Positions 1,964 to 62,267 of a stretch of DNA of 64,000 nucleotides are shown in pieces. A program made the position numbers and the translations under genes. The stretch covers positions 45,450 through 109,449 of IMG/VR virus record IMGVR_UViG_3300031994_000043; one strand, given 5' to 3'. Numbering within the stretch: position 1 is the stretch's first letter; the number at the start of each line of letters is the position of its first letter. Origin of the DNA: a virus (taxonomy: Duplodnaviria > Caudoviricetes). The notes under the pieces were generated by a model that saw nothing but the letters and a program-made list of their open reading frames with translations, was not told the origin of the DNA and made no database searches.

Positions 1964-2584
1964 CTATGCGAACACTGCGTCTTCATCTCCATTAGTGCTG
2001 TCTAATTCGCAATCGTGATTATTAGAGAACTTAACTCCGAGTGTAGTGTAAACCTGGTCGCCATAATCATACACGTCCGAACAAGCATATAATGTTGCGT
2101 TGTATTTTTTCAATAAATCGGAAAGTTCATTTTTAAATTCAGTTTCATATTTAGTTTGTCTATCTTTCTCAATTTTCTTTAGTCTATCATTGGTTACAGT
2201 TTCAAAAAATCTCTTAATTTCGTCATCAAAGTTAGTTTTACCTTCAAACGGACAAGAAGGTTTATTCAACCAAGTTTTAATTGCTGAAGGACTTCCTTTA
2301 TATTGTAAATGATATGGAATGTATTTTTTAGTTAAATCTGTATTTGTATCATAAAAGCTTGAATAATTTGATTTAGTACAAGCATCCAAAGATACTGAAT
2401 CTTTTACAAATTTATCTTTTTTGAGTGAACCCCATACAGACAATACAAGATAAACACTTTTATCTTCTTTTAAATGACCGATAAGGAATTGTTCATAAAC
2501 TCTATTTCCATCGTCAGTGTAACGCCATTCATTGAGAGTAAAGTTATGTTGTTTTAAAATTTCTTGTGCTTCATCTAATCTCAT
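1964..2584 (-). CDS. Leader-family protein (putative capsid-packaged), unknown cargo
   Basis: Starts MRLDEAQEILKQHNFTLNE, a variant of the shared leader; start trimmed from 2599. Confidence 0.75.
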   Translation of the reverse strand: MRLDEAQEILKQHNFTLNEWRYTDDGNRVYEQFLIGHLKEDKSVYLVLSVWGSLKKDKFVKDSVSLDACTKSNYSSFYDTNTDLTKKYIPYHLQYKGSPSAIKTWLNKPSCPFEGKTNFDDEIKRFFETVTNDRLKKIEKDRQTKYETEFKNELSDLLKKYNATLYACSDVYDYGDQVYTTLGVKFSNNHDCELDSTNGDEDAVFA

Positions 2585-2585
2585 T

Positions 2586-3305
2586 TTATTTGCTCTCATA
2601 ATCTAATGCTGCCATTTCTTCATAATCAGGTTTATCACTATGATGAAGGTAAGTTCTCTTGCTTCCCATGTAATTATCATAATCCCAATTTATGTCTTCA
2701 ATAAATGCAGCAACATTTTTGAATGTTCCACCGCCATCACCTTTAGGGGTTTGATATGATACTTGAAGTTTTTTAGATGGCTTTTCATCTTCATCTGGAT
2801 AATACAGCGACCATCCAATTACATAGTCCTTTTTGCCTTTTCCCGGCTTCTTAAACATAAAGAACTTTTCAGTAGCGAAATCACCAATTCCTTTATTGTC
2901 GCCCATCTTTGCACCAATATATTTCCAACCTGTTTTCTTTAGTCCTTCAAAGATAGCAGCAATAGTTTTATTATTTTCTGGTGAACCGGCGAAGCTCTTT
3001 GCTCTTGTAATCTTTTGCTGAAGATTGCGTCCTTCTTCACCCCAAAGTGTATGGTCATATTTTACTGGTTCTTCACCATAGTATCTTTTATAATCGTCTT
3101 TTGCATCATAATAGTCTTTACCGTGATTGCCTTTCTTCCAAAGCTTCTCAAAGTCTTTATCAAATGTTGAGTTGTGACGATGTGTCCACTTACGGCGCTG
3201 AGTTTGAGTCATGCCAGCAGGTAAATCAGCATCATCCCATTCATCTGTATCTTCAACAAGAAACCCTGCTTTTTTCAAAATTTCTTTTGCTTCTTTTAAT
3301 TCCAT
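2586..3305 (-). CDS. Leader-family protein (putative capsid-packaged), unknown cargo
   Basis: Starts MELKEAKEILKKAGFLVE; start trimmed from 3317. Confidence 0.75.
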   Translation of the reverse strand: MELKEAKEILKKAGFLVEDTDEWDDADLPAGMTQTQRRKWTHRHNSTFDKDFEKLWKKGNHGKDYYDAKDDYKRYYGEEPVKYDHTLWGEEGRNLQQKITRAKSFAGSPENNKTIAAIFEGLKKTGWKYIGAKMGDNKGIGDFATEKFFMFKKPGKGKKDYVIGWSLYYPDEDEKPSKKLQVSYQTPKGDGGGTFKNVAAFIEDINWDYDNYMGSKRTYLHHSDKPDYEEMAALDYESK

Positions 3306-3306
3306 T

Positions 3307-3699
3307 TTAATACCCAAAACAATCCTGCCATTCTTTATTTACATCTTCCGTAAATTTTTCCAATTCGGGAGTCATTTCTGCTTCTAGTTTATCTTCCCAC
3401 CAATCTTTGACTTTTTTGATTTTTACATTTTTCTCAAAGTCTTTAAACACTAATTGAGCATTACCAAAATTAAATGTAACAAGTAATGTATCAGTGTTAG
3501 GGTCCCATTTATAGTAAGTATCTATGTCATATTCTCGCATAGCAGTACCAATAAATTCGTTTTCTTTATCCCCAGGTTTAAATTCTTCATCTTGAAATAC
3601 TGCATTGATGATTTCACCAATTTCATATTTCCTTCTTGACTCTACAAGATACCCGTGTAATTGTAATTTAGCAATAGCTTCATCTATATTCATTATCAT
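3307..3699 (-). CDS. Leader-family protein (putative capsid-packaged), unknown cargo
   Basis: MIMNIDEAIAKLQLHGYLVE; AGGAG SD. Confidence 0.75.
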   Translation of the reverse strand: MIMNIDEAIAKLQLHGYLVESRRKYEIGEIINAVFQDEEFKPGDKENEFIGTAMREYDIDTYYKWDPNTDTLLVTFNFGNAQLVFKDFEKNVKIKKVKDWWEDKLEAEMTPELEKFTEDVNKEWQDCFGY

Positions 3700-3709
3700 A
3701 TTTTACTCC

Positions 3710-5089
3710 TTATGAAATGGAACAGACTTCGTCATCTGCTTCACCATTCAAAAGGTCTGCAATTTCTTCATCAGATAGTCCTAAGGCTTTAAGTTTATTG
3801 ACATCCCATTTCTTACTGGTTTTTTCATTTAGCCAAGTCTTGAAGTCTTGTTCCGTACTTTCTGTTTTTGTTTGTGTTTCTTCTTTTCTTATTGTTTTGA
3901 TTTCGCCCACTTTCTTTAGTGGTTTAAAAGCATGTGTATGAGTCATTTGTTTAAATTGTTGTTTACCCATAAGGTATGGTTCCTTATCTATATCGTTAAT
4001 AGGGAATAATGCTAATGCTTGTGGTGCATCAATTTTAGCTGCACTAATTTTATTTGTTGCTCCATTCAAGCAGTTAATACCGTGCTGTCTAGCTTCATAT
4101 TGTAATTTATAATCGTTACCGGCGTATTCAAATACACCTTCTTTACAAATACTCATTAGTTTTTCAAAGTCTGTTCTGTTCATTATACAATAAGTATAAT
4201 TCTTCTTTATATTACCAAAGATTCTGACATATTCATAATATGATTCAACAATGAAAGCATCTTTTAATTTGTTAATGAGAGCCATTTTATCTTGCTCAGC
4301 ATCTTTGCTTATATACTCATTTCTAGTAATGCCTAATTCTTTGAACTTCTTATTCAATTCTTTGGCTTTCTTTAACCAGATACCATTGTGACAAGTAGCA
4401 TCTGAACAGTCTAATATAGAAAGCCATTTTCTTCTTTTACCACGGCAAAAATACTGATATGCTTCATACCAAGCTTCTTCAGCTAATCCATTATCGTAAC
4501 AGTGAACATAATAGTGAAGCATTTCGTGAACAAGTGTATTTCTAAATTCGGCTAATGAAACATTACAGTTAGGGTTAATTAAAATTGCTGAAGGTTCAAA
4601 CTTTTGAGCACTGAAATTAACTGAGTAACTAAATTTACCCATACAATCTTTTAATGGTTCTATTCTGACAGGTAGTTTATCTAGTTTGTTATCAAAATAC
4701 TTAGCATTGAATTTGTCAAAAGCCTGATTAACGAATTCATTTGTTAATTCTATCTTTTGGTAATCGCTTGAATCTACTTCAACTTCGGCAGGCTTTTCAT
4801 TTTGCACAGGAGTTTCGTTTTTTGGTTCTCTATGTTTGATTACAGTAGTATCTTCACCTCTATCCATAAAGGCAGTTACAGTATCCATCAAAGAACTAAT
4901 TTTATTTCTGGCTCTATCGTCTAAAGGAAATTCCTTGTAGATTAAAGACAACTGAGAATAAACTCTTTCAGAGTTCTTTTTGGACTTCTTCCAGGAGTTA
5001 TATGCGTGTATTGCTTTCCAGTAGTAGTCCATCTGTTCAGGAGACAAATCATCTGCTAATTTTTCAAATAAAAAATGCTCAAATTCCAT
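3710..5089 (-). CDS. SprT-like zinc metalloprotease with T4-CTS-like N-terminus
   Basis: FDKFNAKYFDNKL...NTLVHEMLHYY (HExxH)...HNGIW; N-terminus MEFEHFLFE. Confidence 0.75.
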   Translation of the reverse strand: MEFEHFLFEKLADDLSPEQMDYYWKAIHAYNSWKKSKKNSERVYSQLSLIYKEFPLDDRARNKISSLMDTVTAFMDRGEDTTVIKHREPKNETPVQNEKPAEVEVDSSDYQKIELTNEFVNQAFDKFNAKYFDNKLDKLPVRIEPLKDCMGKFSYSVNFSAQKFEPSAILINPNCNVSLAEFRNTLVHEMLHYYVHCYDNGLAEEAWYEAYQYFCRGKRRKWLSILDCSDATCHNGIWLKKAKELNKKFKELGITRNEYISKDAEQDKMALINKLKDAFIVESYYEYVRIFGNIKKNYTYCIMNRTDFEKLMSICKEGVFEYAGNDYKLQYEARQHGINCLNGATNKISAAKIDAPQALALFPINDIDKEPYLMGKQQFKQMTHTHAFKPLKKVGEIKTIRKEETQTKTESTEQDFKTWLNEKTSKKWDVNKLKALGLSDEEIADLLNGEADDEVCSIS

Positions 5090-5105
5090 TGGAAACCTCT
5101 TAATC

Positions 5106-5117
5106 TATTTATAAATA
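5106..5117. promoter_or_regulatory. Overlapping divergent T4-type late promoters
   Basis: Palindrome TATTTATAAATA gives TATAAATA on both strands between divergent genes 5089(-) and 5122(+). Confidence 0.8.
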
Positions 5118-5121
5118 TAGT

Positions 5122-5730
5122 ATGAATTTATACGAAGCCGCAGATATATTACATAAAAATGGATTTTTAATGGAATCATCCATTAAAGGTGATTTCGCAA
5201 AAGGTGAAAAAGGCGGTGAACCCTATTTTGATTTACCTAATGATTATACTTATGATGATGCTAAAAGATACTTTATGGAAGCAATTTATGGTAAATTAGA
5301 TGATGAAGATATACAAATTTATTGGGATAATTATTTGAGAAAATCCCGAATAAAACAATTTGAAACAACATATAATCAGTTTGAAGATTACAAAAATAAC
5401 ACTAAACAAATTAAACTATATCGTGGATTGGTTCTAAATCGTGATAAAGAAGTAGATTTAGATAAAGCTGGTGAATGTTGGTCTTTTAATAAAAATGTTG
5501 CTGTAAAATGGGTAGATGGTATTTGGGATAATATGGTATTTAATCATATTGTAAATAGAGCTGAACTTGAAGACTGTAAGAAGGTTATTTTAACTGCTAC
5601 AACAACATTAGATAATTGCCGTTTACCATATTCTATATGGCTTGCAGGACGATTTGAAAGACCAGAATGGGAAGTTCGTGTAAAAGACGAATCAAAAGTT
5701 AAGATTATTAATTCAAAAGAAATAGAATAA
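5122..5730 (+). CDS. Leader-family protein with ADP-ribosyltransferase-like domain
   Basis: Leader MNLYEAADILHKNGFLME; R-S-E-type motifs LYRG, CWS, EWEV. Confidence 0.6.
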   Translation: MNLYEAADILHKNGFLMESSIKGDFAKGEKGGEPYFDLPNDYTYDDAKRYFMEAIYGKLDDEDIQIYWDNYLRKSRIKQFETTYNQFEDYKNNTKQIKLYRGLVLNRDKEVDLDKAGECWSFNKNVAVKWVDGIWDNMVFNHIVNRAELEDCKKVILTATTTLDNCRLPYSIWLAGRFERPEWEVRVKDESKVKIINSKEIE

Positions 5731-6614
5731 TGACTGATTTCGCTAGTGAATTTAAAAAGATTTTCAGTAATAGTTGCCCACCACAGACAGACTGGAACCA
5801 ACCTAGATACTTTGATTCCTTAAACAATGACTGTTATGGCAGTGAGGCAGCTTTAATGGCAAGTTTAACGAGCGAAGCTTATAACAAATATGGTTTATCT
5901 GTTTATTACTTTGTCAAAGAACACGATACAAAGTTTGACCCATTACTTGGAGAAGACCAATTAGAAAACATTAAAAGAAGATTTGCTTTACAAGTTTATG
6001 CTGAGAATGTTCCACAATTACAGAAACAGTACCAATTACAAGGAATGATTTATACCGAAATTGTGGAAGTTCAATGTACAATTCAACATTTCGCTGAAGC
6101 TTCTCGTTACGATTGGAAAACAGAAAACCCAACCGCATACGATTCTATTGTTCCAAAGATAGGCGACTTAATGTATTTCAAATACTCTGATTTGTATTAT
6201 GAAGTATTGAATGTAAAACAATTTGCAGAAGGCACAACATTCTTAAGTACACCAATTACATACAAATTTAGTTTGAGAGTTTGGAGAAATTCTCACGAAA
6301 ATGTGGATGAGTTGAATGTAAACGATGATAATATGGAACATTTGAGAAGTTATGTTGAACTTGGCGAAACTTTCAATGTTGAACACGATATGGAAGAACA
6401 TACTGCGGCAAATAAGTTAAATCCTAATGCCGGTATGCAGGAGATACATAAGGACTACGTTCCTGACCAGACTAGCGTTGTTAAGGCCAAGGGAGACATA
6501 CTGGCTATAAACGATAATCTCCAGGAAAAGGAGCAAGCACAGGCCGTTTATGACCCAAATACTGACGAGTCTAAAAAAGATTTGCCACGAATTGACCCCT
6601 TTGACGGATGGTAA
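5730..6614 (+). CDS. gp14: Neck/head-completion protein, T4 gp14-like
   Basis: DPLLGED and PKIGDLMYF...YYEV motifs typical of gp14. Confidence 0.75.
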   Translation: MTDFASEFKKIFSNSCPPQTDWNQPRYFDSLNNDCYGSEAALMASLTSEAYNKYGLSVYYFVKEHDTKFDPLLGEDQLENIKRRFALQVYAENVPQLQKQYQLQGMIYTEIVEVQCTIQHFAEASRYDWKTENPTAYDSIVPKIGDLMYFKYSDLYYEVLNVKQFAEGTTFLSTPITYKFSLRVWRNSHENVDELNVNDDNMEHLRSYVELGETFNVEHDMEEHTAANKLNPNAGMQEIHKDYVPDQTSVVKAKGDILAINDNLQEKEQAQAVYDPNTDESKKDLPRIDPFDGW

Positions 6615-6615
6615 T

Positions 6616-6623
6616 TATAAATA
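6616..6623 (+). promoter_or_regulatory. T4-type late promoter
   Basis: TATAAATA upstream of the 6652 gene and terminase fragment. Confidence 0.7.
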
Positions 6624-6651
6624 ATAGACAAAATAAATGTGAGGTGAAATT

Positions 6652-7071: not shown

Positions 7072-7073
7072 AT

Positions 7074-23907: not shown

Positions 23908-24231
23908 TTAGATACCAAATTTTTCGGCAAATTCTTCTGGTGAGTAAATGCCACCTTTTTTAGGTTCAATCTCAGTAATTTCACCATTTTTAATAGTAAT
24001 TTTTACTTCACCAACATCGTCAAATACAGTATAAAATTCATAAATGTTACGATATATAAGTTTGTAACCATCGCCTCTACGCCAATCAGAGTGCCATTTA
24101 ATACCATTTTCCTGTGTATATTCATATACTACTTGACCAAGCCAATCAAGTGTATCATCTTCAGCATGGGTTTCTTTGATAAGATAATAACCTTGGTTAT
24201 CCAAAAATTCTATTGCTTCTTGTAAATTCAT
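23908..24231 (-). CDS. Leader-family protein, unknown cargo
   Basis: MNLQEAIEFLDNQGYYLIKE. Confidence 0.75.
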   Translation of the reverse strand: MNLQEAIEFLDNQGYYLIKETHAEDDTLDWLGQVVYEYTQENGIKWHSDWRRGDGYKLIYRNIYEFYTVFDDVGEVKITIKNGEITEIEPKKGGIYSPEEFAEKFGI

Positions 24232-42105: not shown

Positions 42106-43440
42106 TTAGAATGTGAAACCTTCACCAGCTTTAGCCCAAATAGCACCAGTGTCGAACTTGAGCAAGCGGTAATAGTTGTCAGCACCCAACATATTGTTAG
42201 CGAAAGCATAACGGCTCATAACACCAACACGTGGAGAGAAGTCGTTAGGGTCAATAGCCTGATTTACTACACCAGTGACGTATGGGCAGAATACTACACC
42301 ACAGTCGGATACGCCGGTACCCTTATAGGCGAGCAATACTTCACCATTATCAACACCAGTGAAAGCGTTTACAGCATAGTTATCACGGTAGACCTTGATA
42401 GAACCATTCAATGTACCAATTTCAGGTGTAGCGGTAGAGCCATTAACTTCACCGGTAACCTTATTGAAGAATGGAGCAGCTTGCTGAAGAACAGAAGCCA
42501 TATCTGGAGATACTACAGCGATATTAGCAGCAGCTCTACGAGTAGCAGTAGCAATATCGTTAGCAGTCTTAACAATGATACCTACGATACGAGAATATCT
42601 TTCCTGAGACCAACGGCCAACCCAACCATCTTGAACAGCATCGGCCTTGCCAGCGGTACAAACGATTGGCTTACAGATTGACTTACAACGAGCGATGGTT
42701 TCACGGTCAATTTCAGCAGTCATTTCGTACTGAAGAACATTAACCATTTCCTGCATCATTTCAACACCCTGCATTCTCTTAATATCTTCAGCAGATTCAA
42801 GAGAGAAGGAAGCAGCAAGTTTACGAGTCTTGGCAACGATGGACTGACGAGAGAACATCAAACCAAGTTCAGGAATCTTACCACGGAGACCTGTTGAGAA
42901 ATCGTTGTGGGTCTGGATTTCGTCATACTTACCAGTAATCTTCCAAGCTTCAGCAGATTGTGTATCAACACCAGTACCTGCGTCAGGTTCACCACTTGTG
43001 TTAGCGGTAGAGCCAGAGAAACCAGAATATTCTGGAACAGCCTTCCAAGCAGCTTCAACCAATTTTTCAGGATTTGCTGCATCTTTATAAACATAACGAA
43101 GAGCGAATGCCAAACCAACTGGGCCAGAGAGTGGCTGGACACCAACTAGAACGTTAGCAAACAACTGTGGGAATACACGGCGGACAAGAGCCAAAGAAAT
43201 TGGAGCAAAGACAGCCTTACTGTCACCACCGTGAGGGATACCCTGGTCAGCACCAAGTGGAGCACCTACACCCATTGTGAAGTCTTCGTTCAAAGCGGAG
43301 CCAACATCCTGACGGATTTGGTTTTCCATAAGCTTCTTCATGTTTTCACGAATATACTTATCTTTAATACCATTGATTGATAGCTTTTCTTGACCCTGAG
43401 TAGCCAAGTTTTCTACCAATGTGTTTTTAATTGTATTCAT
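42106..43440 (-). CDS. gp23: Major capsid protein
   Basis: LVRRVFP.L.A...GVQPLSGPVGLAFALR, TRKL, AEIDRE, FCPY, PRVGVMSRY; predicted cleavage LNE52. Confidence 0.95.
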   Translation of the reverse strand: MNTIKNTLVENLATQGQEKLSINGIKDKYIRENMKKLMENQIRQDVGSALNEDFTMGVGAPLGADQGIPHGGDSKAVFAPISLALVRRVFPQLFANVLVGVQPLSGPVGLAFALRYVYKDAANPEKLVEAAWKAVPEYSGFSGSTANTSGEPDAGTGVDTQSAEAWKITGKYDEIQTHNDFSTGLRGKIPELGLMFSRQSIVAKTRKLAASFSLESAEDIKRMQGVEMMQEMVNVLQYEMTAEIDRETIARCKSICKPIVCTAGKADAVQDGWVGRWSQERYSRIVGIIVKTANDIATATRRAAANIAVVSPDMASVLQQAAPFFNKVTGEVNGSTATPEIGTLNGSIKVYRDNYAVNAFTGVDNGEVLLAYKGTGVSDCGVVFCPYVTGVVNQAIDPNDFSPRVGVMSRYAFANNMLGADNYYRLLKFDTGAIWAKAGEGFTF

Positions 43441-43515: not shown

Positions 43516-44481
43516 TTAATCTTCTTCCATATATCTAGCGGCTTCGTCAAGGAAACGATTAGATGATGGAGTCTGCTTTCTGTATTTTTCAGTTATTAAA
43601 TCATCACGTTCAATAGCCTGTTCTGTTTTAGCAGCACGGGATACTGGGCGAGACTTCTTTTCAAACAAATTAGCACGATTGTTACGCATATTGATAGATT
43701 GTTCAGTAATCATTTCAACATAGTCATCAATGTCTTTCTTTGTTTCGGAAAGTGATTTGCTTTCAAAGAACTTTTGAACGCGGGCCTTTTGGGTAGCATC
43801 CAATCCATAGGTCTTTTCAGCGATAGTAGCCTTCTTGGTTGAATCTTCTACAAGATCAATCAAACGCATATTTTCAGCAAGCTGCTTTTTCAATGACTTT
43901 TCCAATTCAGCATTTTCAGCTTTAGCTTCACGCAATTTCTTGGAACCAGTCAAATCCATTGGAACATACTGTTCTTCAAATAGGTGTTGAATACCTTCAA
44001 TGATAGGTGCGTATGTTTCTGTCATAGCAGTCTTGTTAATAAGCTTTTCACTAATCTTTTCGGAGATGTTATATTCAAGGTACTTGTCTAAACCAGTAAT
44101 AACTTTTTCTTCAAGTGCTTCAAGTTCCTTACCATACTTTTCTGTGAACTTTTCGTCAAAATATTCATAGATGTACTGTTCAGCAGCTTCTTCCAACTTC
44201 TTACATTGGGTATCAAGCTTTTCTTGTGCCTTTTCAGTGATTTTGGCACAGCGTTCTTCACAATACTGGTTGGCGAGATTTTCCAATTCAACGGTTTTCT
44301 TTTCAACCTCTTCTTTGATTTTTTGATTACAAAATTCATCAGCTTTCTTGGCAATGGCTTGTTTTTCTTCTTCTAATTTTGCCTGAAGTCTTTCTTCTAC
44401 TGCAGATTCAAAGGATTCTTTAATTTCCTGCAAATCTTCAGCAGTTAAAACACCAGCAAGTTTTTCAAGAATTTTATCCAT
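43516..44481 (-). CDS. gp22: Prohead scaffolding protein
   Basis: Coiled-coil, FESAV, LDKYLEY, IEGIQHLFEEQY; upstream of gp23; ATG 44481 after GGAGG. Confidence 0.8.
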   Translation of the reverse strand: MDKILEKLAGVLTAEDLQEIKESFESAVEERLQAKLEEEKQAIAKKADEFCNQKIKEEVEKKTVELENLANQYCEERCAKITEKAQEKLDTQCKKLEEAAEQYIYEYFDEKFTEKYGKELEALEEKVITGLDKYLEYNISEKISEKLINKTAMTETYAPIIEGIQHLFEEQYVPMDLTGSKKLREAKAENAELEKSLKKQLAENMRLIDLVEDSTKKATIAEKTYGLDATQKARVQKFFESKSLSETKKDIDDYVEMITEQSINMRNNRANLFEKKSRPVSRAAKTEQAIERDDLITEKYRKQTPSSNRFLDEAARYMEED

Positions 44482-44566
44482 TAGATTTTCCTCCAATTTA
44501 CTGTGAACATTTTTGTGTTATACACAATGTATTTATGAAAAATTTTACGCAATTTTTTGTTGCTTT

Positions 44567-44617: not shown

Positions 44618-45208
44618 TTATTCGCCTGTAGCAACCATTTCAAATGTACTATAACGGAATGTGCAAGTTCTTTGAACCTTTTCTGCACTTTCCATACCCA
44701 AACCAGTCTGTTGAACTGTCTTCGGCCATACATAGTAGAACTTGAACTCAACAGGAAGTTTTTGTTTCAAAGCAGAATCATAAAGAACTACTCTAGCTGT
44801 AGCACAGTAGTCTTTAAGATAGTTAGAACTAGCACCACCTGTAATACCACCGACATCTATATCATTTTGGAATCCACCATTGAATAGTAAGTTCTGCCAG
44901 CGATGTAGTGCCTTAGAAATATACATATCCTGGAATTCGTCAAATGCGACGTCAAATGTACCATCCATAGTAGACTTACCAGGATAGACTAATTTTGTTC
45001 CCATATATTCGGTGATGAGTTCACCAAAATCTTTCTGTGGCATAGATGCGGTTTTAGCACGAAGCATAAAATCGTCTGTTCCAATAACATTTGACAATAC
45101 AGAACCACTTTCATATTCAAAGATAATCTGGTAAAGATAATTCTTTGCAAGGTCTGGCAAATTCTTAATGGAAGTAGTAAATACAGACATATTGTTAGAC
45201 ATTGACAT
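44618..45208 (-). CDS. gp19: Tail tube protein
   Basis: DLAKNYLY, AKTASMP, YMGTKLVYPG, WQN, FYYVWP, TFRYS; own late promoter and terminator. Confidence 0.8.
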   Translation of the reverse strand: MSMSNNMSVFTTSIKNLPDLAKNYLYQIIFEYESGSVLSNVIGTDDFMLRAKTASMPQKDFGELITEYMGTKLVYPGKSTMDGTFDVAFDEFQDMYISKALHRWQNLLFNGGFQNDIDVGGITGGASSNYLKDYCATARVVLYDSALKQKLPVEFKFYYVWPKTVQQTGLGMESAEKVQRTCTFRYSTFEMVATGE

Positions 45209-45646: not shown

Positions 45647-46093
45647 TTACTTAAAGTTCTTGATAAGACCAATAATCTTGTCTATTTCTTCAATGGTATC
45701 ACTGAAGATGTTTTCAAGACTAATTTTTGTACTATATGCTCTTTTAAGATTTTCTAGTTCATCACGATATGCTTCAATTTTTACAAGCGCATTTCCCAAA
45801 TCAAAGATTTCGTCATTCATATTGTAAGTTTTAGAATTTAATTTGAATGGCACACCCATAGAAAGGACTGTTTCAACTAGCTTGTCAGCAAAATCACGAA
45901 TGCAGTCATACAAATTTTCAAATTGTGTATGCTGGAAACCGGATTGACAAGACCAGTGATAAGTGTGAATTTTGTCTGCAAAGACCAAACTGTCCATAGC
46001 AAAGGTGTAGAGTTTTTCTACTTCATTTGTTTGTGAACTAGCCAAAAAGGTCAAAAAATCTTGTGGAGCTTCTTTAACAACTTCTATTTCCAT
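45647..46093 (-). CDS. Dps/ferritin-like four-helix protein
   Basis: KIHTYHW...QH..FENLYD...FADKLVE; start trimmed to ATG 46093 after GGAG; TATAAATA 46116-46123. Confidence 0.7.
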   Translation of the reverse strand: MEIEVVKEAPQDFLTFLASSQTNEVEKLYTFAMDSLVFADKIHTYHWSCQSGFQHTQFENLYDCIRDFADKLVETVLSMGVPFKLNSKTYNMNDEIFDLGNALVKIEAYRDELENLKRAYSTKISLENIFSDTIEEIDKIIGLIKNFK

Positions 46094-46122
46094 TTTATTT
46101 TCTCCCATTATAATGTATTTAT

Positions 46123-46152
46123 AAAAAATGGTGGCTCTATACAGAGCCACCA
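46123..46152 (-). terminator. Terminator after portal gene
   Basis: TGGTGGCTCT-ATAC-AGAGCCACCA plus T-tract on the minus strand. Confidence 0.7.
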
Positions 46153-46194: not shown

Positions 46195-47796
46195 TTAGAA
46201 ACCTAAATCGTCTCCTTCTTCGTCATTTTCATCACCGCCTTCTTCCTTAGCTGCATCAGCTTTAGCAAGAATTTCTTGTGTTTCTTCTGCAATAAGTCTA
46301 TCGTTTCTAATTCTCTGTTCGGAAGTTAAACCAAGTATATCTTCCATAAAGAATTGACGAGAGAACAAAGGACCAAGGTTTTCGGAACCAGGTTTGACAT
46401 TATCCAATGTAGGAAGGAATTGAGATAGAGAACCAACAACACCACTTCTCTTTTCACACATAGACAAAGAACGCATAAGTTCAAAGTCAGTAGCTGGAAT
46501 CAAGTCAATGTGATAAATGGTTTTGTCAAGATACTTACTATCATATCCACGAACCTGCAAATGAACGAGGAATACCTGATAAATGATGTCGCAGAACTTT
46601 CTACGAAGTCTCTTATTCAATTTTTGGAAAGATGCTTCTTCCAATGTAAGGCTTTCAACGCCCTGGGTATAAGGAGTGCCACCACCTTCACCAGATTGCC
46701 ATCTACTAGAAGGAACCTGAAGAGCATCAGCAACTTGTTCACGGAACATTTTAACGTCATCCAACTGTCCGTTAAATTCTGTTGAACCCTTGAAATTTTC
46801 TACAGTAGAACCCTGACCATCAGAGTCAATAGAGAGCCAGAAATCTTCTACGAAAGCCTGAACATTGTTATTGGACTGAATCATACCAGTAACAGGGTCA
46901 ATAGTCAACTGCTTACGATACTTTGAACGAATTTCCTGCATATACTCAGGAACCTTAGATGTAGGAAGTTTACCTGTGTAAATCTTGAAAATTCTCTTTT
47001 CAGGAGCACGTGTAATTCTGTAAACTGTCAAAGCATCTTCAATGGCACGAAGTTGGTTAATTGGGCGAATAGCGGGTTCCAAGTGACCGCGTATATCGTT
47101 CTTATTGTTACCCCAGAATCCATAGTTAATATAAGCAACTTGGTTTGTAGTAAATGATTTTGGTTCTGTGTCTAAATCAGGGTTCAACAATTTTATATCT
47201 TCAATGAAACCTTGAAGAATACCATCATCATAAACACACATTGTGCAGTATGGTGGCAAACATTTAAGGCCAGCAACTTTATCACCTTTTGTGTTCAAAC
47301 AAATTTCAAAGAACAATTCAGCATCAACCAACCACTTATAGTAGTAATACCACAACTGGTCTTTTCCGAAAACTTCGTTAATGATATAATTGAATTCATC
47401 ACGCAAAGTCATTAACTCAGTTTCTGTAAATTTTGATTTGAAAGCTCTGTCTATATCAAATGTGGCAACTTCACCCAAAGCATTTTCACAAACGGCTTCG
47501 TCAGCCATCATAGTCAAACACTTACGAACGAAAGGATATAATGCCAAATTACGATAGGTACTAATTCTTTGTCTTTTGTTTGCGAAGACTTGTTCAAACA
47601 TAATGCCAGATGCATCATATACATCTGAGCCTTCTACATAACCATTCAAATAGCCATGAGTTAATCTTTTCCAGTCAACAGCATCTTCACTTCTACCATA
47701 AGAATTTAATGCTGCTTCAGCAGAACGAACCATCTGGTGTTCTGGCTCTGGTTGTAAGAATTTATCACTGAATGGATTTAAAAAACTTAAATTCAT
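46195..47796 (-). CDS. gp20: Portal protein
   Basis: YRNLALYP, KWLVD, NQLRAIEDALTVYRITRAPEKRIFKI, EDFWL, ALQVPSSR. Confidence 0.95.
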   Translation of the reverse strand: MNLSFLNPFSDKFLQPEPEHQMVRSAEAALNSYGRSEDAVDWKRLTHGYLNGYVEGSDVYDASGIMFEQVFANKRQRISTYRNLALYPFVRKCLTMMADEAVCENALGEVATFDIDRAFKSKFTETELMTLRDEFNYIINEVFGKDQLWYYYYKWLVDAELFFEICLNTKGDKVAGLKCLPPYCTMCVYDDGILQGFIEDIKLLNPDLDTEPKSFTTNQVAYINYGFWGNNKNDIRGHLEPAIRPINQLRAIEDALTVYRITRAPEKRIFKIYTGKLPTSKVPEYMQEIRSKYRKQLTIDPVTGMIQSNNNVQAFVEDFWLSIDSDGQGSTVENFKGSTEFNGQLDDVKMFREQVADALQVPSSRWQSGEGGGTPYTQGVESLTLEEASFQKLNKRLRRKFCDIIYQVFLVHLQVRGYDSKYLDKTIYHIDLIPATDFELMRSLSMCEKRSGVVGSLSQFLPTLDNVKPGSENLGPLFSRQFFMEDILGLTSEQRIRNDRLIAEETQEILAKADAAKEEGGDENDEEGDDLGF

Positions 47797-47816: not shown

Positions 47817-48605
47817 CTATTTATAATTAACTATTTTGTTCCATAGTCTTTCAGGCACATAAGTTTCCAAATCTTTTTTCAATTTTTCGTCTTTGATTAA
47901 CTTCAAATCGTGATTAGCCATTGACAAGAACCAACTATCAACCATTAAGTTATCTGCTATATCTTCAAGTTGTGGTTTATCAAAATAAAGATATGGCTGA
48001 GTAATGAAACCATCATCATTTCCCAAGTTATTTCTGTCTTGTCTTAAAGTTCTCAATGCTCCATATCTAAACAACATAACTAATTGAGAGAGCCATTCAC
48101 CATCTTCTGGTGTTGCTTCACTACACCAGTCCCAAGCAACTTCAATACCTTTTGTGGAATCAGACCAAATTACTCCTTCAGGCCATTCACACAATAATTG
48201 TTCATTTATGTATTCTTGGAAGTTTTCATTGAACTGTGGTGCTAAAAATTTATCTTTTACTTTATTGAAATCTTTTTTGACTGGTTCATAAGGTTTTCTG
48301 TTGTAGTTTATATCTGGGTTCTTTTTGTTGTATGCCATACCCATATTTTTACGTGCAACAAATGACTTTTTTTGTTTGAGTTTAATTAAGTTCATTTTAG
48401 CATTACGCTTAATTTTACCTTTTCTCTGACCAAGTCTACGATTTCTTTTTTCTTTGGCAGTTATACGAACTTCTCTAGGTTTGCCGTTGGCATCGTATTC
48501 AACACGATAACCTTTACGGTTGGTCTTCCATTTCTTTACTTTCTTGTTCTTACGAACAACATATTTGACCTTGAGTGCTTCGTTTAAATAATCATCAAAA
48601 TTCAT
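47817..48605 (-). CDS. Prohead core protein, gp68-like (basic N-terminal half)
   Basis: MNFDDYLNE then very basic KGYRV...RRLGQRKG; adjacent to portal. Confidence 0.5.
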   Translation of the reverse strand: MNFDDYLNEALKVKYVVRKNKKVKKWKTNRKGYRVEYDANGKPREVRITAKEKRNRRLGQRKGKIKRNAKMNLIKLKQKKSFVARKNMGMAYNKKNPDINYNRKPYEPVKKDFNKVKDKFLAPQFNENFQEYINEQLLCEWPEGVIWSDSTKGIEVAWDWCSEATPEDGEWLSQLVMLFRYGALRTLRQDRNNLGNDDGFITQPYLYFDKPQLEDIADNLMVDSWFLSMANHDLKLIKDEKLKKDLETYVPERLWNKIVNYK

Positions 48606-48622
48606 ACTATATTTATAGAAAT

Positions 48623-48694: not shown

Positions 48695-49123
48695 TTATTC
48701 TTCTCCGTATAATCTTTCTTGTTCTGCATCCATTTCGTCTGCAAAATCACCTTCTTTAATTTTCTTATTAATATCAGCTAAAACATATTTCATACAAGTT
48801 TTACCAATATCAGTTGCCATAAATTTATCAGTATTTCCATCATCAAATACTGTAGTATCATAATGATTTTTATTGAAATCTTTTTGAACCAATATAATTG
48901 TTGGCTCACCATTTAATGAAAATTTGTAATTTTCACCAACGCCTACATCTCGTTCAGCACCATATACTTCATAGTTAATTTCAGCAGAATATAAGATATA
49001 ATAATCTGAGCCGTCTATTGTTGGTTCAATTTCATATTCGTGTTCAAAGGAACCACTAATAATGTTTTCAACCAACATATATCCTTTGCCATTCAAAAAT
49101 TTTTTAGCTTCTCTTAAATCCAT
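48695..49123 (-). CDS. Leader-family protein, unknown cargo
   Basis: MDLREAKKFLNGKGYMLVE. Confidence 0.75.
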   Translation of the reverse strand: MDLREAKKFLNGKGYMLVENIISGSFEHEYEIEPTIDGSDYYILYSAEINYEVYGAERDVGVGENYKFSLNGEPTIILVQKDFNKNHYDTTVFDDGNTDKFMATDIGKTCMKYVLADINKKIKEGDFADEMDAEQERLYGEE

Positions 49124-49133: not shown

Positions 49134-50003
49134 TCATTTTAATTTAATAATCAATCTGTCAAACACGGTTTCGCCATTTAGTTTAAGTTTTCCATCTACG
49201 CCTAGAATTTCAAACGGCAAGTTATCCGGGTCCACATTTTGTAAAATACTTACTGGCACACCAAGTACTTCGTCTGTGTCAGGTATTGCTCTCTGTGACT
49301 TTACAGAAATAATATCTGCGTTGTCAAATTTAGGGAATTTTTCCTCATCATATTCAACCAAATTCAAAGGTTTATATGATTTATTGACTGGAAGATTTGT
49401 GTACCAAGCACAATAGACGTGTTTATCCTTAGCACCTTCAGGTCTATAAAAATTACCAACTGTTGTATAACCATATCTCAATCTGTGGTTCATATACAAA
49501 TTCAAGCAAGTTGGTTTAGACATTTTAATCGGTGTACACAACATAATAAAAGGTTTACTCTTATATGTTTCAACAATTTTATTGAACAAACTAAAAGGTG
49601 GATTTGTTACGATTACATCGGCTTTCTTTGCTAATGCTTGACATTCAGGACTTGTACAGTCACCGTTACCCTTTAAAGGATGGTCAATGCGTTTATCTCC
49701 ATAGTATTCAGTCCAATAGGTATCTCCGCTGGTTTCATAATGAGAAGAAATCAAACCTTTCAAACCGAGAGAATCAAAATTTTCTTCAAAATACTTGTAG
49801 AAATTAGACCATTCAGGGTTGTCGCAGCAACAATAAACGATTTTTCCACCGAAATTGTAATGTTTAAGTTCTTTTACAATATCCTTCATATAAGTGTAAA
49901 ATTCGTCATCTTTGCTTTTTGCGGCTTGGTTCAAAACGTGTTTCTGTTTTTCCACTAAATAGCCTTTAGAACGCAAAAATTGTGTAGCTTCGGATAATTT
50001 CAT
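49134..50003 (-). CDS. EcoRI-family adenine DNA methyltransferase fused to the leader
   Basis: DEFYT, VYCCCD, SNFYKYF, GNGD, DVIVTNPPFSLF, GVPVS; leader MKLSEATQFLRSKGYLVE. Confidence 0.85.
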   Translation of the reverse strand: MKLSEATQFLRSKGYLVEKQKHVLNQAAKSKDDEFYTYMKDIVKELKHYNFGGKIVYCCCDNPEWSNFYKYFEENFDSLGLKGLISSHYETSGDTYWTEYYGDKRIDHPLKGNGDCTSPECQALAKKADVIVTNPPFSLFNKIVETYKSKPFIMLCTPIKMSKPTCLNLYMNHRLRYGYTTVGNFYRPEGAKDKHVYCAWYTNLPVNKSYKPLNLVEYDEEKFPKFDNADIISVKSQRAIPDTDEVLGVPVSILQNVDPDNLPFEILGVDGKLKLNGETVFDRLIIKLK

Positions 50004-50013
50004 ACTATATTTA

Positions 50014-50079
50014 TGTAAATTTTATTTTACAAGTTTTTACAGAAAATCCATTGACAAACTGCCACAAATTATCTATATT
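50014..50079 (+). promoter_or_regulatory. Sigma70-type early promoter with upstream dyad
   Basis: TGTAAA-N6-TTTACA (50014-50031), TTGACA (50051-50056)-17 bp-TATATT (50074-50079). Confidence 0.85.
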
Positions 50080-54517: not shown

Positions 54518-54567
54518 AAATTTCTCCAAAATTTTCTATTATACTATATTTATAATACTTCCTACTT

Positions 54568-54966: not shown

Positions 54967-54974
54967 AATTTATC

Positions 54975-55298: not shown

Positions 55299-55302
55299 TA
55301 TA

Positions 55303-56223: not shown

Positions 56224-56246
56224 ATTCAAATCTCTCTATAATGTAT

Positions 56247-58592: not shown

Positions 58593-58613
58593 ACTATATT
58601 TATTACTATAAAC

Positions 58614-58641
58614 AAAAACAGTGCCATTTTTCAGGCACTGT
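58614..58641 (-). terminator. Intrinsic terminator
   Basis: ACAGTGCC-N8-GGCACTGT with T-tract on the minus strand. Confidence 0.7.
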
Positions 58642-58672
58642 CAAGGAGTTTTTTAGTTGTATTGAAAATAAA

Positions 58673-59122
58673 TTATTCTTCGTCTTCGTTTTCTTCGTCA
58701 TCCAAATCTTCTTCGTCACCGAAGTCTTCGTCATCGGAACCGGCGAAATCATCGTCTACAGCGTCTTCGTCAGCAACTGGCTTGTAGATAACATAACCAA
58801 GGCCCTGGAGCAAGTCAATGGCATCTGCTTCATCATCGTCATAAAGTGGGTTGCCATCTTCATCTTCTTCTGTTGTGTCAATTTCACCAACAGGAATCAA
58901 AGTAGCACCGCATTCAGGACAGACAGGGTTTGCCATATCCAATTCTACAGGTTCTTCAGCACCATCTTCTTCGCCGGCATCAGTATCATCGGCAACATCG
59001 TCAATGTCGGTATCTTCTTCAGTATCAACATCGGTGAGTTCCAAATCTTCTTCGTCTTCAACGAGATATTTCTTTGCTCTATTTAAATAATTTTCGTATA
59101 AATCCATTTTTGTGTTCTCCAT
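58673..59122 (-). CDS. Very acidic protein with CPECG motif
   Basis: Asp/Glu-rich; late promoter 59138-59145. Confidence 0.7.
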   Translation of the reverse strand: MENTKMDLYENYLNRAKKYLVEDEEDLELTDVDTEEDTDIDDVADDTDAGEEDGAEEPVELDMANPVCPECGATLIPVGEIDTTEEDEDGNPLYDDDEADAIDLLQGLGYVIYKPVADEDAVDDDFAGSDDEDFGDEEDLDDEENEDEE

Positions 59123-59151
59123 TAAAATTGTTTATAGTATTTATAATAATT

Positions 59152-59502
59152 TTATTTACTAAAGTATCTTAATTTGTCGTATATTTCCATTTCACAATAC
59201 CAAGGATTTATATTGATGCCCTGGTCTTTTAAGTCATTTGCTAATTTAGTTGCAGCTCTTTTAGTTGCTCTTCTCAATTCAGGTGAAGTATATTCAAATC
59301 GTTTCAAATAGTCAGGTGATATATTGCCGTATTCGTCAACTTGTGGTGGAATATCAGCTAGTTCTTCGTCATAGAGTTGGTCAGCTACATCTTGAATAAC
59401 ACTTTGTATGTATGCCCTTTCCCAAGTCTCATTTAAAACTTGATTATCTTCAAGTACAAAACCATTTTCTGCAAGTATCTGTTTAGCTTCGTTTAATTCC
59501 AT
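59152..59502 (-). CDS. Leader-family protein, unknown cargo
   Basis: MELNEAKQILAENGFVLE; start trimmed from 59526. Confidence 0.75.
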   Translation of the reverse strand: MELNEAKQILAENGFVLEDNQVLNETWERAYIQSVIQDVADQLYDEELADIPPQVDEYGNISPDYLKRFEYTSPELRRATKRAATKLANDLKDQGININPWYCEMEIYDKLRYFSK

Positions 59503-59503
59503 A

Positions 59504-60091
59504 TTATACCTTAACATAACCAGCATTTATCATATAGTTTAATATATCAGGTTTAAAATTACCATATTGGACAGTATCGCCATAACCGAGACTAAAACTT
59601 TTTATCTCTTTAATATCATCTATGCTTGATATACCATATTTTGTATATTCTTGTTTTTTAACATTATCAATGAATACTTGCATACCATATTTTAGATAAT
59701 CGTTTTTAGTACAATACTTATGCGGGTGCATAGAATAATCTCGTTTTTCACCATTAGAATTTACAACTGTAAGTTGATAATAATTATATCTATGTTTTGG
59801 TTTTTGTGGTACTGTTATTGTTCCAGTTCTTTTATATTCTTCTAATCTTTTTTCAACTTCTTCACCATATTCGTATTGGTCTAAAAGTTTAAAAGCAATA
59901 TCTTTAGCACTCATACTACTATTGAATAGTTTATCTAAATCTATATCGTGCTGCAAGTCACCCATTAAATCCCAGGCAGTATTTACAGATACACCATAAA
60001 TTTTAGCAAAAATTTCAATAGCATCATCTTGCTTTGATTCTAACAAAAAACCATTTGTATTTAAAATATGTTTAGCTTCGTCTAATCTCAT
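59504..60091 (-). CDS. Leader-family protein, unknown cargo
   Basis: MRLDEAKHILNTNGFLLE; start trimmed from 60103. Confidence 0.75.
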   Translation of the reverse strand: MRLDEAKHILNTNGFLLESKQDDAIEIFAKIYGVSVNTAWDLMGDLQHDIDLDKLFNSSMSAKDIAFKLLDQYEYGEEVEKRLEEYKRTGTITVPQKPKHRYNYYQLTVVNSNGEKRDYSMHPHKYCTKNDYLKYGMQVFIDNVKKQEYTKYGISSIDDIKEIKSFSLGYGDTVQYGNFKPDILNYMINAGYVKV

Positions 60092-60819
60092 TAACGACTC
60101 CATTTTTTAATTTCTTTTGCAGCTATTTTATTTAAGTCTGCCTTTCTAATTGCTTCAATAGTATCATTTAATGACATTTTAGCAAGTTGCATTATAGCAC
60201 CATTACAATGGTCGGAAGGCCATCTTTGAACATTATTAACATTATCTTCCCAAAGTTTATCTTCAATTTTTCTTTGTACATCTATGAAATAAATGTTAAT
60301 TTCTTGTACAACATTATAAGTATCATCACCAAATATGGTTTCTACATAATCATATATCTTATCATGTCTTCTTTGTGCTTTTGGATTACTAGATAAACCA
60401 CTTTTACCTACATCAACTGCGCCACAATAGAAAGGCCAGAAATCTATTAACATTTCTTTTAGCTTCAATTCCTGTAATTTATCCATTTTTGTACTGTTTT
60501 TTGATTCTACAAGAATGTAACCTTTAGAATTTAAATACTGTTTGGCTTCATAAAATGTACAATCATCAGGAAAACCATTATCTACAAACTCAACAGGTTT
60601 ATCTATATCGTATTCGTTGTTATCTTGTTTGTATTTAATCTGGTATTCAATGAATTTTACACCTTTCAATATATCAGGTTCATAATCGTGCGACATTTCC
60701 TTAACCAAATCATCGGCAAGAACTGTCATAGCATCCTGTATATCGTCAATTTCGTAGCCATCATTATAACAGATTTCTTCAATTTCGTTCAAATCGTCTT
60801 GGGTTACTTCTCTTTCCAT
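60091..60819 (-). CDS. Protein with internal copy of the leader after an acidic N-terminal domain
   Basis: TFYEAKQYLNSKGYILVE at about residues 88-105; TATAAATA 60845-60852. Confidence 0.75.
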   Translation of the reverse strand: MEREVTQDDLNEIEEICYNDGYEIDDIQDAMTVLADDLVKEMSHDYEPDILKGVKFIEYQIKYKQDNNEYDIDKPVEFVDNGFPDDCTFYEAKQYLNSKGYILVESKNSTKMDKLQELKLKEMLIDFWPFYCGAVDVGKSGLSSNPKAQRRHDKIYDYVETIFGDDTYNVVQEINIYFIDVQRKIEDKLWEDNVNNVQRWPSDHCNGAIMQLAKMSLNDTIEAIRKADLNKIAAKEIKKWSR

Positions 60820-60885
60820 AAAAACTCCAAATTCTTTTATAGTATATTTATAACTTTATGTAAATTTTTATAAACCTAACAGTAC

Positions 60886-60973
60886 TGCCCCAGTACGTCG
60901 TTTTCCTGGGGCAATAGTAGGGTTTTATGTATTGAACAAAATCTGGGCAGTGAACGTCGTTTCCTGGGCAGTA
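60886..60973. repeat. GC-rich intergenic direct/inverted repeat cluster
   Basis: ACGTCGTTT(T)CCTGGG(G)CA twice; TGCCCCAG/CTGGGGCA inverted repeat 60886-60913. Confidence 0.6.
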
Positions 60974-60977
60974 ATCA

Positions 60978-61649
60978 TTACTTGGTAATGAATGGTGCTA
61001 CTAATAAGCCCTGTGGATGCTCTTTACTGACTACATTATATACTTCTATCTGCGATTTTGGTAGTTCGTGTAGCTGAATTACTCCAGCTCTCAGTTTCAA
61101 TTCCATACGCAAACATTCGCATAATGCGTAAGCGTCTATTAAATCCGAAGTAGGGCTTACACCTTTTCCGTTATCAACCTCAGGCAAAGTGCTCAAATCC
61201 GGTTTTGTTTCAGTCCACTTATCAAATCCATCTCGCATACCGATTTTATCACTCAAACCATAACCAGAGAAAAACTTCTTATTGGAGTTTACAGAATACA
61301 AACGCATTTTCTGCCCGCGTTCTACTTCAGCAAGTTTAATGTTACCTTCAAATTCAGCAAGTGAGAAAATTTGACCCAAGGCGCCGCTCTTACCATACGC
61401 ATAATCTTCTGTTGCCAGATACTCACAATTTTTAGTCCATTCCAAAATTTTATCTTTCATCCAGTTATATTTGGCATAATCACTGTTGAAATCTTTATTG
61501 TTGTAATAAAGGATATGGTCCTGTTCTAATTTCTTTTTACTAGTAAAACCATAATACTGGACATCCAATATATCCAATGTTTTATCGTCTAATGTTTCTA
61601 CAATAATTCCAGACGATGAAATAGAAAGGTCCTGACCTGCAATTTTCAA
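60978..61649 (-). CDS. RuvC-like Holliday junction resolvase
   Basis: IAGQDLSISSSG, ATEDYAYG, LAEFEG, KKFFSGYG.SDK, SDLIDAYA; TTG start after GAGGTG. Confidence 0.75.
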   Translation of the reverse strand: MKIAGQDLSISSSGIIVETLDDKTLDILDVQYYGFTSKKKLEQDHILYYNNKDFNSDYAKYNWMKDKILEWTKNCEYLATEDYAYGKSGALGQIFSLAEFEGNIKLAEVERGQKMRLYSVNSNKKFFSGYGLSDKIGMRDGFDKWTETKPDLSTLPEVDNGKGVSPTSDLIDAYALCECLRMELKLRAGVIQLHELPKSQIEVYNVVSKEHPQGLLVAPFITK

Positions 61650-61673
61650 AATTCACCTCACAAAATGTTTAAA

Positions 61674-61922
61674 CTATTTACAACCCAAAATCATAGTATA
61701 GTGTCTGTTTTGACACAAGTATTCAATCTTCAAATCGTGTTCAAAGAATTGTATATCTTCCAAAACGAGTGACTGTGGTGCAGCAAATTTTTCTACATCT
61801 TTAAAGACTTTCTCAATTTCTTTATCGGTATTTTCGGAATAGCCTTTAAACATCAATTTGCCTAACTGTGATTTTAATTGTTCGTTAATTTCTTCTACTG
61901 TATTAAATTTGACTTCAAGCAT
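61674..61922 (-). CDS. Hypothetical protein
   Basis: GAGGT SD. Confidence 0.7.
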   Translation of the reverse strand: MLEVKFNTVEEINEQLKSQLGKLMFKGYSENTDKEIEKVFKDVEKFAAPQSLVLEDIQFFEHDLKIEYLCQNRHYTMILGCK

Positions 61923-61951
61923 AAAACTACCTCAAAATTTATGTATAAAAG

Positions 61952-61978
61952 AAAAAACCAGGAATTTGCTTCCTGGTT
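61952..61978 (-). terminator. Intrinsic terminator
   Basis: AACCAGGAA-TTTGC-TTCCTGGTT plus T-tract on the minus strand. Confidence 0.7.
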
Positions 61979-62000
61979 ATAATTTATACGAAAATGAAAC

Positions 62001-62267
62001 TTAATTGTCTTCGGGTCTACCCCATTTATCGCAAAGTTCTTCATAACTCATATCAATAGCTTGTTCTGGTTCAGAGCAATGTCTTCTCCAATCTTCATCA
62101 CATTCATCTGCTAATTCTTTAATCATATCCTGAATGTCAAAGAATTTACAACCTGGATGAGAATCTTCGTATTCGTCAAACCATTTACGCCAGTCACCCA
62201 TATCACTAGCACGTTCTGTGATAAATCCATTATTTGATAAAATTTGTCTTGCTTCGTTTAAATCCAT
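62001..62267 (-). CDS. Leader-family protein, unknown cargo
   Basis: MDLNEARQILSNNGFITE. Confidence 0.75.
   Translation of the reverse strand: MDLNEARQILSNNGFITERASDMGDWRKWFDEYEDSHPGCKFFDIQDMIKELADECDEDWRRHCSEPEQAIDMSYEELCDKWGRPEDN

Follow-up and report, generated by a model that had tools for sequence, protein, structure and literature searches.

We examined a 64,000-nt window of a tailed-phage genome (Duplodnaviria; Caudoviricetes; positions 45450-109449 of IMG/VR record IMGVR_UViG_3300031994_000043, a 109,449-bp contig with a CheckV completeness of 32%), in which a short leader recurs at the start of otherwise dissimilar proteins. In the translated genes, the leader follows the pattern M-x-L-x-E-A-x-x-[IFVK]-L-x-x-x-[GN]-[FY], with an [LIV]-x-E tripeptide within the next 3-5 residues; it is 18-20 residues long and has the consensus M-N-L-N-E-A-K-Q-I-L-K-K-N-G-Y-I-[LIV]-E. 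The genes concerned, together with the phage head genes and a metalloprotease gene found among them, are listed in Table 1. Positions are those of the window unless they are given as contig positions.

Table 1. Leader-bearing genes, head genes and a metalloprotease gene in the window (aa, amino acids)
Gene or product	Position	Strand	Leader or unit copy	Remarks
Leader gene, 206 aa	1964-2584	-	MRLDEAQEILKQHNFTLNE at 2528-2584	No Pfam or PHROG family
Leader gene, 239 aa	2586-3305	-	MELKEAKEILKKAGFLVE at 3252-3305	
Leader gene, 128-130 aa	3307-3699	-	MNIDEAIAKLQLHGYLVE from ATG 3693	Alternative ATG at 3699
SprT-like zinc metalloprotease	3710-5089	-		HEMLHY motif; Pfam PF10263, 28 bits
Leader gene, 202 aa	5122-5730	+	MNLYEAADILHKNGFLME at 5122-5175	ADP-ribosyltransferase-like cargo
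Leader gene, 107 aa	23908-24231	-	MNLQEAIEFLDNQGYYLIKE at 24172-24231	Last in a long late operon
Major capsid protein (gp23-type)	42106-43440	-		phrog_138, 1.5e-68; 34% identity to cyanophage gp23
Scaffolding (gp22-like) protein	43516-44496	-		phrog_237; rich in [LIV]-x-E motifs
Portal protein (gp20-type)	46195-47796	-		phrog_213, 2.3e-78
Leader gene, 142 aa	48695-49123	-	MDLREAKKFLNGKGYMLVE at 49067-49123	Just upstream of the head module
Leader gene, 289 aa	49134-50003	-	MKLSEATQFLRSKGYLVE at 49950-50003	EcoRI-type adenine DNA methyltransferase
Leader gene, 116 aa	59152-59502	-	MELNEAKQILAENGFVLE at 59449-59502	
Leader gene, 195 aa	59504-60091	-	MRLDEAKHILNTNGFLLE at 60038-60091	
Gene with internal copy, 242 aa	60091-60819	-	CTFYEAKQYLNSKGYILVE, residues 88-106, at 60505-60561	
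Leader gene, 88 aa	62001-62267	-	MDLNEARQILSNNGFITE at 62214-62267	Very acidic cargo; late-promoter motif TATAAATA begins 35 nt upstream

A sequence-only reading of this DNA had reported ten amino-terminal copies and an internal one, and translation confirmed each of them, together with the closing tripeptides that it had listed for the window (LVE five times, and LME, IKE, VLE, LLE, ITE and LNE). Its count of eleven proved too low. A 16-column hidden Markov model (HMM) made from the leader copies and run on all six-frame open reading frames (ORFs) of the contig identified 13 sites scoring 22-31 bits, with the runner-up anywhere in the contig at 6 bits. Two of these sites lie outside the window (contig 141 and contig 4467), and a 14th, more divergent copy, MKYETAKELLLSEGYRIVSE, begins at contig 5364, which brings the number in the contig to at least 13-14. 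In 12 of the 13 HMM sites the initiator Met is the start of the leader; the remaining site is the copy inside gene 60091-60819, which sits between an acidic amino-terminal part and a carboxy-terminal part and is also found in the relative L134. All 13 copies are closed by [LIV]-x-E. Searches of GenBank phages and of the literature gave nothing: the leader consensus found no match in GenBank phages by tblastn, megablast of 22.5 kb of the contig against the same phages gave no match, and a full-text literature search for the spelled-out motif returned no paper that contains it. A HicA or dsRBD-like amino terminus was considered and dropped, as Pfam gives no hit and the GSH continuation is absent.

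Behind the leader the proteins differ. When the cargoes were compared with one another by BLASTP, the best pair was the methylase and the ADP-ribosyltransferase-like protein, with an E value of 3.5e-4 over 87 residues, and all other pairs were above 0.05; the cargoes are thus without significant mutual similarity, as had been claimed. Pfam and PHROGs searches with the ten window cargoes and 99 members of the protein library described below recognized the methylase alone and left the others as orphans. One of the orphan families, that of gene 2586-3305 (EDTD[ED]WD.AD...), is among the commonest cargoes in related contigs.

Such a shared start might be a DNA or RNA feature (a recombination cassette, an initiation signal or the product of gene conversion), or the amino terminus of one diverged paralogue family, in either case without a targeting role. 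The leader codons are very A/T-rich, which would favour open initiation regions, the leader genes are often placed in tandem, and Repoila et al. (1994) reportedly saw T-even internal-protein loci shuffle around the DNA that codes for their capsid-targeting sequence. However, the synonymous sites vary. Invariant residues are encoded by different codons (GCT, GCA or GCC for Ala; GGT, GGA, GGG or GGC for Gly; TTA, TTG or CTT for Leu), the same codon is used at just 62% of identical leader residues, and the 30 nt 5' of the leader genes are 33% identical, i.e. at the random level. Since synonymous codons vary and the upstream DNA shows random identity, the conservation of the leader must be selected at the protein level, and the codon variation rules out a DNA-level element or a recent gene conversion. 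As for a paralogue family, the cargoes are unrelated, and the methylase has cellular relatives that lack the leader, which rules out a single family. This explanation is largely refuted, and we regard it as highly improbable.

The methylase offers the clearest view of the leader as a separate part. It scores 189.9 bits against PF13651 (E 1e-55), well above the curated cut-off of 26.4, has 874 homologues, and contains the conserved DEFYT and NPPF motifs. Cellular EcoRI-methylase homologues begin with MS.NKNL.KAKK.KNDEFYT, without a leader. Most orthologues in the phage clade, down to 53% identity, carry the leader ahead of the core with a linker of 2-14 residues, and none of these departs from the Glu of [LIV]-x-E; the leader is missing from three orthologues, which are 53-61% identical. 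That homologues exist with and without it bears out the earlier claim of a modular tag, and the comparison supports an amino-terminal add-on grafted onto unrelated cargoes.

The second recognizable cargo, encoded at 5122-5730, matches no Pfam family, but its residues and fold suggest that it is an R-S-ExE ADP-ribosyltransferase, the enzyme class of T4 Alt. In 24 orthologues, R101-G, G-x-C-W (C119-W120) and E182-W-E184 are invariant, and S121, within C119-W-S-F122, is Ser in 21 and Thr in three. The model places R101 on strand 97-105, C119-W-S on strand 119-121 and ExE just before strand 184-187, in keeping with the R-S-ExE motif of the Alt/ModA/ModB and cholera-toxin class. Among the Foldseek matches listed, all are catalytic domains of PARPs or tankyrases and weak (E 0.06-0.2); VIA-align gave Z scores of 4-6.2, mostly to ADP-ribosylating toxins and PARPs, and the protein Atlas lead is DRAT (0.93). 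In six of the orthologues the leader is replaced by MIVELT..DL..IRTILES, and E18-S19 is still invariant, so that the Glu of the T4-type ending noticed in the sequence-only reading is kept even where the rest of the leader is not. A second tag class of this kind (MIVEL...LES) on other proteins was not found among the fetched loci. One close orthologue (P0137, 202 aa, 85% identical) bears the Joint Genome Institute name 'sulfatase maturation enzyme AslB (radical SAM superfamily)', which looks like an annotation error, the protein having no radical-SAM motif.

AlphaFold2 models of both cargoes treat the leader alike. In the methylase model, made from a 51-sequence alignment, the mean predicted local distance difference test (pLDDT) score is 91, the leader helix spans residues 2-11 and residues 23-29 fall below 50; in the ADP-ribosyltransferase-like model (pLDDT 82.6), the helix spans residues 3-12 and residues 14-28 fall below 50. 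Both models thus predict a leader helix that stands off from the cargo fold and, behind it, a disordered linker, exposed at the proposed cut.

Scanning of relatives shows the leader to be a large family. The capsid protein retrieves 71 related IMG/VR loci, among them a 411-kb contig of 98% completeness and two complete genomes with direct terminal repeats (415,750 and 424,163 bp), and the profile finds 23 and 18 leader copies in the two complete genomes and 11 in the 411-kb contig. Contigs of 375-409 kb carry orthologues. A profile search of a library of 1.84 billion representative proteins (E <= 0.001) yields 550 leader clusters. The start M..xEA stands at residue 1 in 134 of the best 150 clusters, and of these 134, 132 show [LI]-x-E; its Glu stands at position 18 in 85 clusters, 19 in 27, 20 in 17 and farther on in 3, and it is most often followed by D, then by S. 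The distance of the closing tripeptide from Gly14 varies from G+4 to G+6. Because the tripeptide is kept although its register to Gly14 varies, a linear recognition site fits better than a fixed structural position. Leader genes often stand in tandem. A degenerate DNA pattern found 94 stretches in viral contigs, and the loci examined score at least 10 bits with the leader HMM, except L171.

The best-supported reading of these data, on circumstantial evidence, is that the leader is on balance probably a portable capsid-targeting propeptide. The tagged protein would attach to some part of the prohead core by way of an amphipathic helix formed by residues 2-12, a turn at Gly and a short strand of hydrophobic residues, and a gp21-type (S77) prohead protease would then cut after the Glu of the closing [LI]-x-E. 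The cut would free the cargo inside the head, to be delivered with the DNA, and the delivered set would comprise many small acidic proteins beside the EcoRI-type DNA methylase and the Alt-like ADP-ribosyltransferase. We infer each of these steps (core docking, cleavage, packaging and injection) from sequence.

Several observations favour a link between the leader and a prohead protease. Peptidase_S77 (gp21-type) is present at 96-115 bits in all five related contigs searched, three of which, the two complete genomes and the 411-kb contig, are at least 98% complete (CheckV), and the protease profile finds it in 59 further loci. In complete relatives its gene lies at G003:89821-90297 and G004:186997-187491. 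The capsid protein of the window has a predicted propeptide junction, ALNE|DF, after residue 52, and an [LI]-x-E|DF junction is kept across the clade at the point where conservation begins, at the position of the T4 gp23 cut. D, which follows the Glu there, is also the residue seen most often behind the Glu of the leader. A small natural control comes from five complete 36-80 kb phages without S77: each has one helix-strand unit, and 0 of 5 end in [LIV]-x-E, as compared with the 132 of 134 jumbo-clade leaders that have [LI]-x-E.

The evidence from late promoters is less telling. The late-promoter motif TATAAATA occurs 25 times on the coding strand and 5 times on the other. It stands in perfect form directly upstream of three leader genes, and with one mismatch (CATAAATA) at 50003; the other leader genes lie downstream in operons, and the gene with the internal copy has a late promoter and a Shine-Dalgarno site upstream. 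The claim that all copies lie in late units is only motif-based, and since the window is almost entirely late-gene territory, it tells little. In the related loci, 35% of 125 distinct leader genes have TATAAATA no more than 80 nt upstream, much the same as the 33.5% of ORFs of at least 150 aa, the comparison set richest in real genes.

A number of points weigh against capsid targeting. As the sampled regions are mostly late, the promoter evidence is non-discriminating. No S77 gene was found in the 109-kb contig, which at 32% completeness lacks two thirds of the genome, either by PF03420 scan or by tblastn with the proteases of the relatives, and two scans for the S77 of the contig's own sub-clade found just more distant lineages. 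The slot before the scaffold and capsid genes, which holds the S77 protease in the relative G005, is occupied by a 196-aa ORF (44618-45208, minus strand) that matches PHROG 45 'tail tube' (E 5.6e-17) and showed no protease similarity in a PDB sequence search; gene order is not conserved across the clade. G005 itself (83 kb, S77 adjoining the capsid gene) has zero leader copies. Most leader cargoes are acidic (pI 4.2-5.8) and T4 internal proteins are basic, and between the T4 capsid-targeting sequence (CTS), MKTYQEFIAE, and the leader consensus MNLNEAKQILKKNGYIVE there is no alignable similarity. Short T4-like amino termini in the same contig (MNFDDYLNE and MKTLEDYIRE, see below) could be the real CTS. 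The phage is uncultured, and a literature search found no virion proteomics. The remaining points concern the build of the unit and the places where it occurs.

The leader core L-x-E-A-K-x-x-L-x-x-x-G-[FY]-x-V matches the helix and strand of PASTA-type units, and these units do not serve as protease substrates. In Pfam, the protein encoded at 2586-3305 scores 11.2 bits and the library protein P0166 20.1 bits against PASTA (PF03793), both under the gathering cut-off of 23.2, and the matches cover only positions 9-37 and 10-31 of the 64 in the profile. Among the low-scoring hits at the end of the library scan are bacterial PASTA repeats (P0177, P0186 and P0204). The pattern ..L.EAK.LL...G[FL].V resembles the alpha1-beta2 part of PASTA; the leader, however, has 18-20 residues against about 64, lacks beta1 and beta3, and is followed immediately by unrelated sequence, so that it is at most a structural look-alike or a half-unit of PASTA. 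The unit also forms tandem arrays, with three units about 40 residues apart in P0168, four with a 21-residue period in P0187, and two each in P0212 and the L127 protein, and the library scan finds it at internal or carboxy-terminal positions. In loci L126, L127, L130, L141 and L153, from phages without S77, it occurs once per genome, at the amino terminus of a coiled-coil-rich protein.

E5-A6, L10 and G14 may therefore be purely structural, and the unit may be a general docking or oligomerization unit; if it needs a partner strand, it may be a docking half-domain. In the main rival to capsid targeting, the leader would be half of a small alpha/beta unit whose fold is completed when it pairs with a like or complementary unit of another protein, and would serve as a cytoplasmic tag that joins effectors to one another or to a hub, unrelated to the capsid, with a closing Glu that is structural or takes part in binding. 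The sub-threshold PASTA matches, the bacterial repeats, the tandem, internal and carboxy-terminal copies and the use of the unit by small phages without S77 all speak for such a tag, as does the AlphaFold2 result that no strand forms in isolation, which is expected if a partner is needed. Yet it leaves unexplained why [LI]-x-E is found in 132 of 134 jumbo leaders at variable register and in none of the five S77-less copies, and why a flexible linker follows the Glu. No candidate hub with the unit was found in the 109-kb contig, where the next HMM score is 6 bits. A docking role is also compatible with capsid targeting, as the partner could be a core protein, and as a separate explanation we consider it unlikely.

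A bolder proposal joins the two. The tag could be a peptide that docks by fold complementation: as half of a PASTA-like unit, it would fit a prohead-core receptor of the rumen/gut jumbo T4-like clade, with the S77 site as a release switch, and would serve a swappable arsenal of hundreds of families of injected effectors. The fused and tandem forms would then be polyproteins cut apart by the head protease. We think this unlikely as it stands; if it were true, the capsid would have an address of a structurally new kind, unlike the T4 CTS, and the tag could be used for programmable protein loading.

Another candidate partner for the leader is a nearby phage enzyme, which might recognize it as a sequence to be cut or regulated (a SprT-like metalloprotease) or modified (a radical-SAM maturase). 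Of 10 whole-genome hits to SprT-like genes, 6 have a leader gene no more than about 1 kb away, where about 1.7 would be expected; these adjacencies amount to roughly three conserved linkages. Two are in the contig, and the adjacency recurs for three SprT-like paralogue groups in relatives G001 and G003. The SprT-like gene of the window heads a late unit that runs into three leader genes and itself has no leader of this type. A second SprT-like gene, with a HEMCHY motif (contig 3419-4201, minus strand), abuts another leader gene. On the other hand, no SprT-like gene adjoins the leader genes at 6 of their 8 places in the contig, islands of accessory or anti-defence genes would explain the linkage equally well, and we know of nothing that ties SprT-like enzymes to [LI]-x-E sites. 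Radical-SAM linkage was rejected: there are no such genes in the contig, and those of the relatives are NrdG-type or lie on the opposite strand. We read the SprT-like adjacency as a sign of accessory-gene islands, although another processing enzyme is conceivable, and consider an enzyme-recognition role for the leader very unlikely.

The surrounding head module and promoters have features of their own. Directly upstream of the portal gene, a 262-aa ORF (47817-48605, minus strand) starts with MNFDDYLNE|A, a 9-residue peptide that is shaped like the T4 CTS and ends in LNE, followed by an extremely basic stretch, KVKYVVRKNKKVKKWKTNRKGYR...; in these features it seems closer to a classical T4 internal protein than are the leader-tagged proteins. 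Similar starts are found in the SprT-like protein of 3710-5089 (MEFEHFLFE) and, outside the window, at contig 43500 (MKTLEDYIRE). A 167-aa ORF between the portal and scaffold genes (45647-46150, minus strand) matches DUF5856 at 30 bits, under the cut-off, and phrog_858, 'starvation-inducible transcriptional regulator', at E 1.8e-08. Our guess is that it is Dps/ferritin-like. It is an unusual occupant of a T4-type head module. Contig 1435-1949 (by motif, like the amino terminus of a terminase large subunit) has a matching gene in relatives, with the S77 gene some 400 nt upstream of it. Here (contig 1269-2168 and 155-1312, outside the window) a CCA-adding-enzyme-like gene takes the place of S77 as the neighbour, which indicates that the order of the head genes has been rearranged in this lineage. 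Finally, the late-promoter motif (T/C)ATAAATATAGT abuts the ATG at 5122, 50003 and 48605 (window 5110-5124, 49999-50015 and 48602-48617), leaving no room for a Shine-Dalgarno sequence, and the 4-nt spacing from promoter to start is also seen in 5 of 125 leader genes of relatives. This suggests leaderless or near-leaderless late mRNAs.

If the leader does load proteins into the head as a capsid-targeting propeptide, these phages would deliver dozens of proteins with their DNA, including a methylase and an ADP-ribosyltransferase, as compared with a handful in T4, and the 550 or more tagged clusters would form a catalogue of candidate first-strike effectors and anti-defence proteins of uncultured gut and rumen phages. 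Being short and modular, with a putative natural release site after it, the tag is a candidate signal for the loading of foreign proteins. Beyond the sequence-only reading, the analysis adds the PASTA-like core, the tandem, internal and carboxy-terminal copies, and the single copies without [LIV]-x-E in small phages that have no S77.

The nearest known system is that of the T-even phages, where the CTS of the T4 internal proteins IPI, IPII and IPIII is said to have been described by Mullaney and Black (1996). In IPIII the CTS takes up the first 10 residues, of which 4 and 7 are important for targeting and 8 and 10 for processing, and the CTS has been considered a possible evolutionary device for loading varied proteins (PMC9026906, PMC5694885, PMC3012670). 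The internal proteins of T-even phages are diverse defence proteins in which the CTS alone is conserved (PMC3012670, PMC9026906), T4 propeptides are 10-20 residues long (PMC5694885), and Alt is packaged in the T4 head and clipped by gp21 (PMC9026906). Like the CTS and the propeptides that gp21 removes from Alt and gp24, the leader is an amino-terminal segment of 10-20 residues on unrelated proteins; it has an (L/I)-x-E ending, the motif that S77 prohead proteases cut; T4-type late-promoter motifs stand upstream of its genes or their operons; and one of its cargoes is ADP-ribosyltransferase-like, as Alt is. The sequence-only reading had called it a different, longer tag, but its length is within the known range and diverse cargo behind a CTS is already published. 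What does set it apart is a build of helix, Gly and strand in which [LIV]-x-E occurs twice (residues 3-5 and 16-18), acidic rather than basic cargoes, occurrence also at internal, carboxy-terminal and tandem positions, and scale: a third of a genome has at least 13 such genes, complete relatives have 18-23, and the clusters number 550, whereas T-even phages have from three to a handful.

The giant phages phiKZ, 201phi2-1 and SPN3US load dozens of proteins into the head that are clipped after Glu by a gp21-related protease; their propeptides have redundant sites inside, and the identical amino termini of the paralogues gp53 and gp54 hint at targeting (PMC5694885, PMC10052503). Those propeptides, however, are mostly longer than 100 residues, protein-specific and cut at A/S/G-x-E, in contrast to one short common tag. 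Phage P1 provides a precedent for a DNA-modifying enzyme carried in the capsid, as its DarB methyltransferase/helicase is packaged in the head, injected, and protects from restriction (PMC9024508, PMC12810830); its loading depends on an ordered protein-protein hierarchy (Hdf, DarA) rather than on a common short cleavable leader, and its methylase family is unrelated. Apart from sequence homology, build, cargo charge and scale, the leader matches the T4 CTS on every feature that sequence can test. The principle is thus known from the T-even phages, and the gain lies in its breadth and in a new tag architecture.

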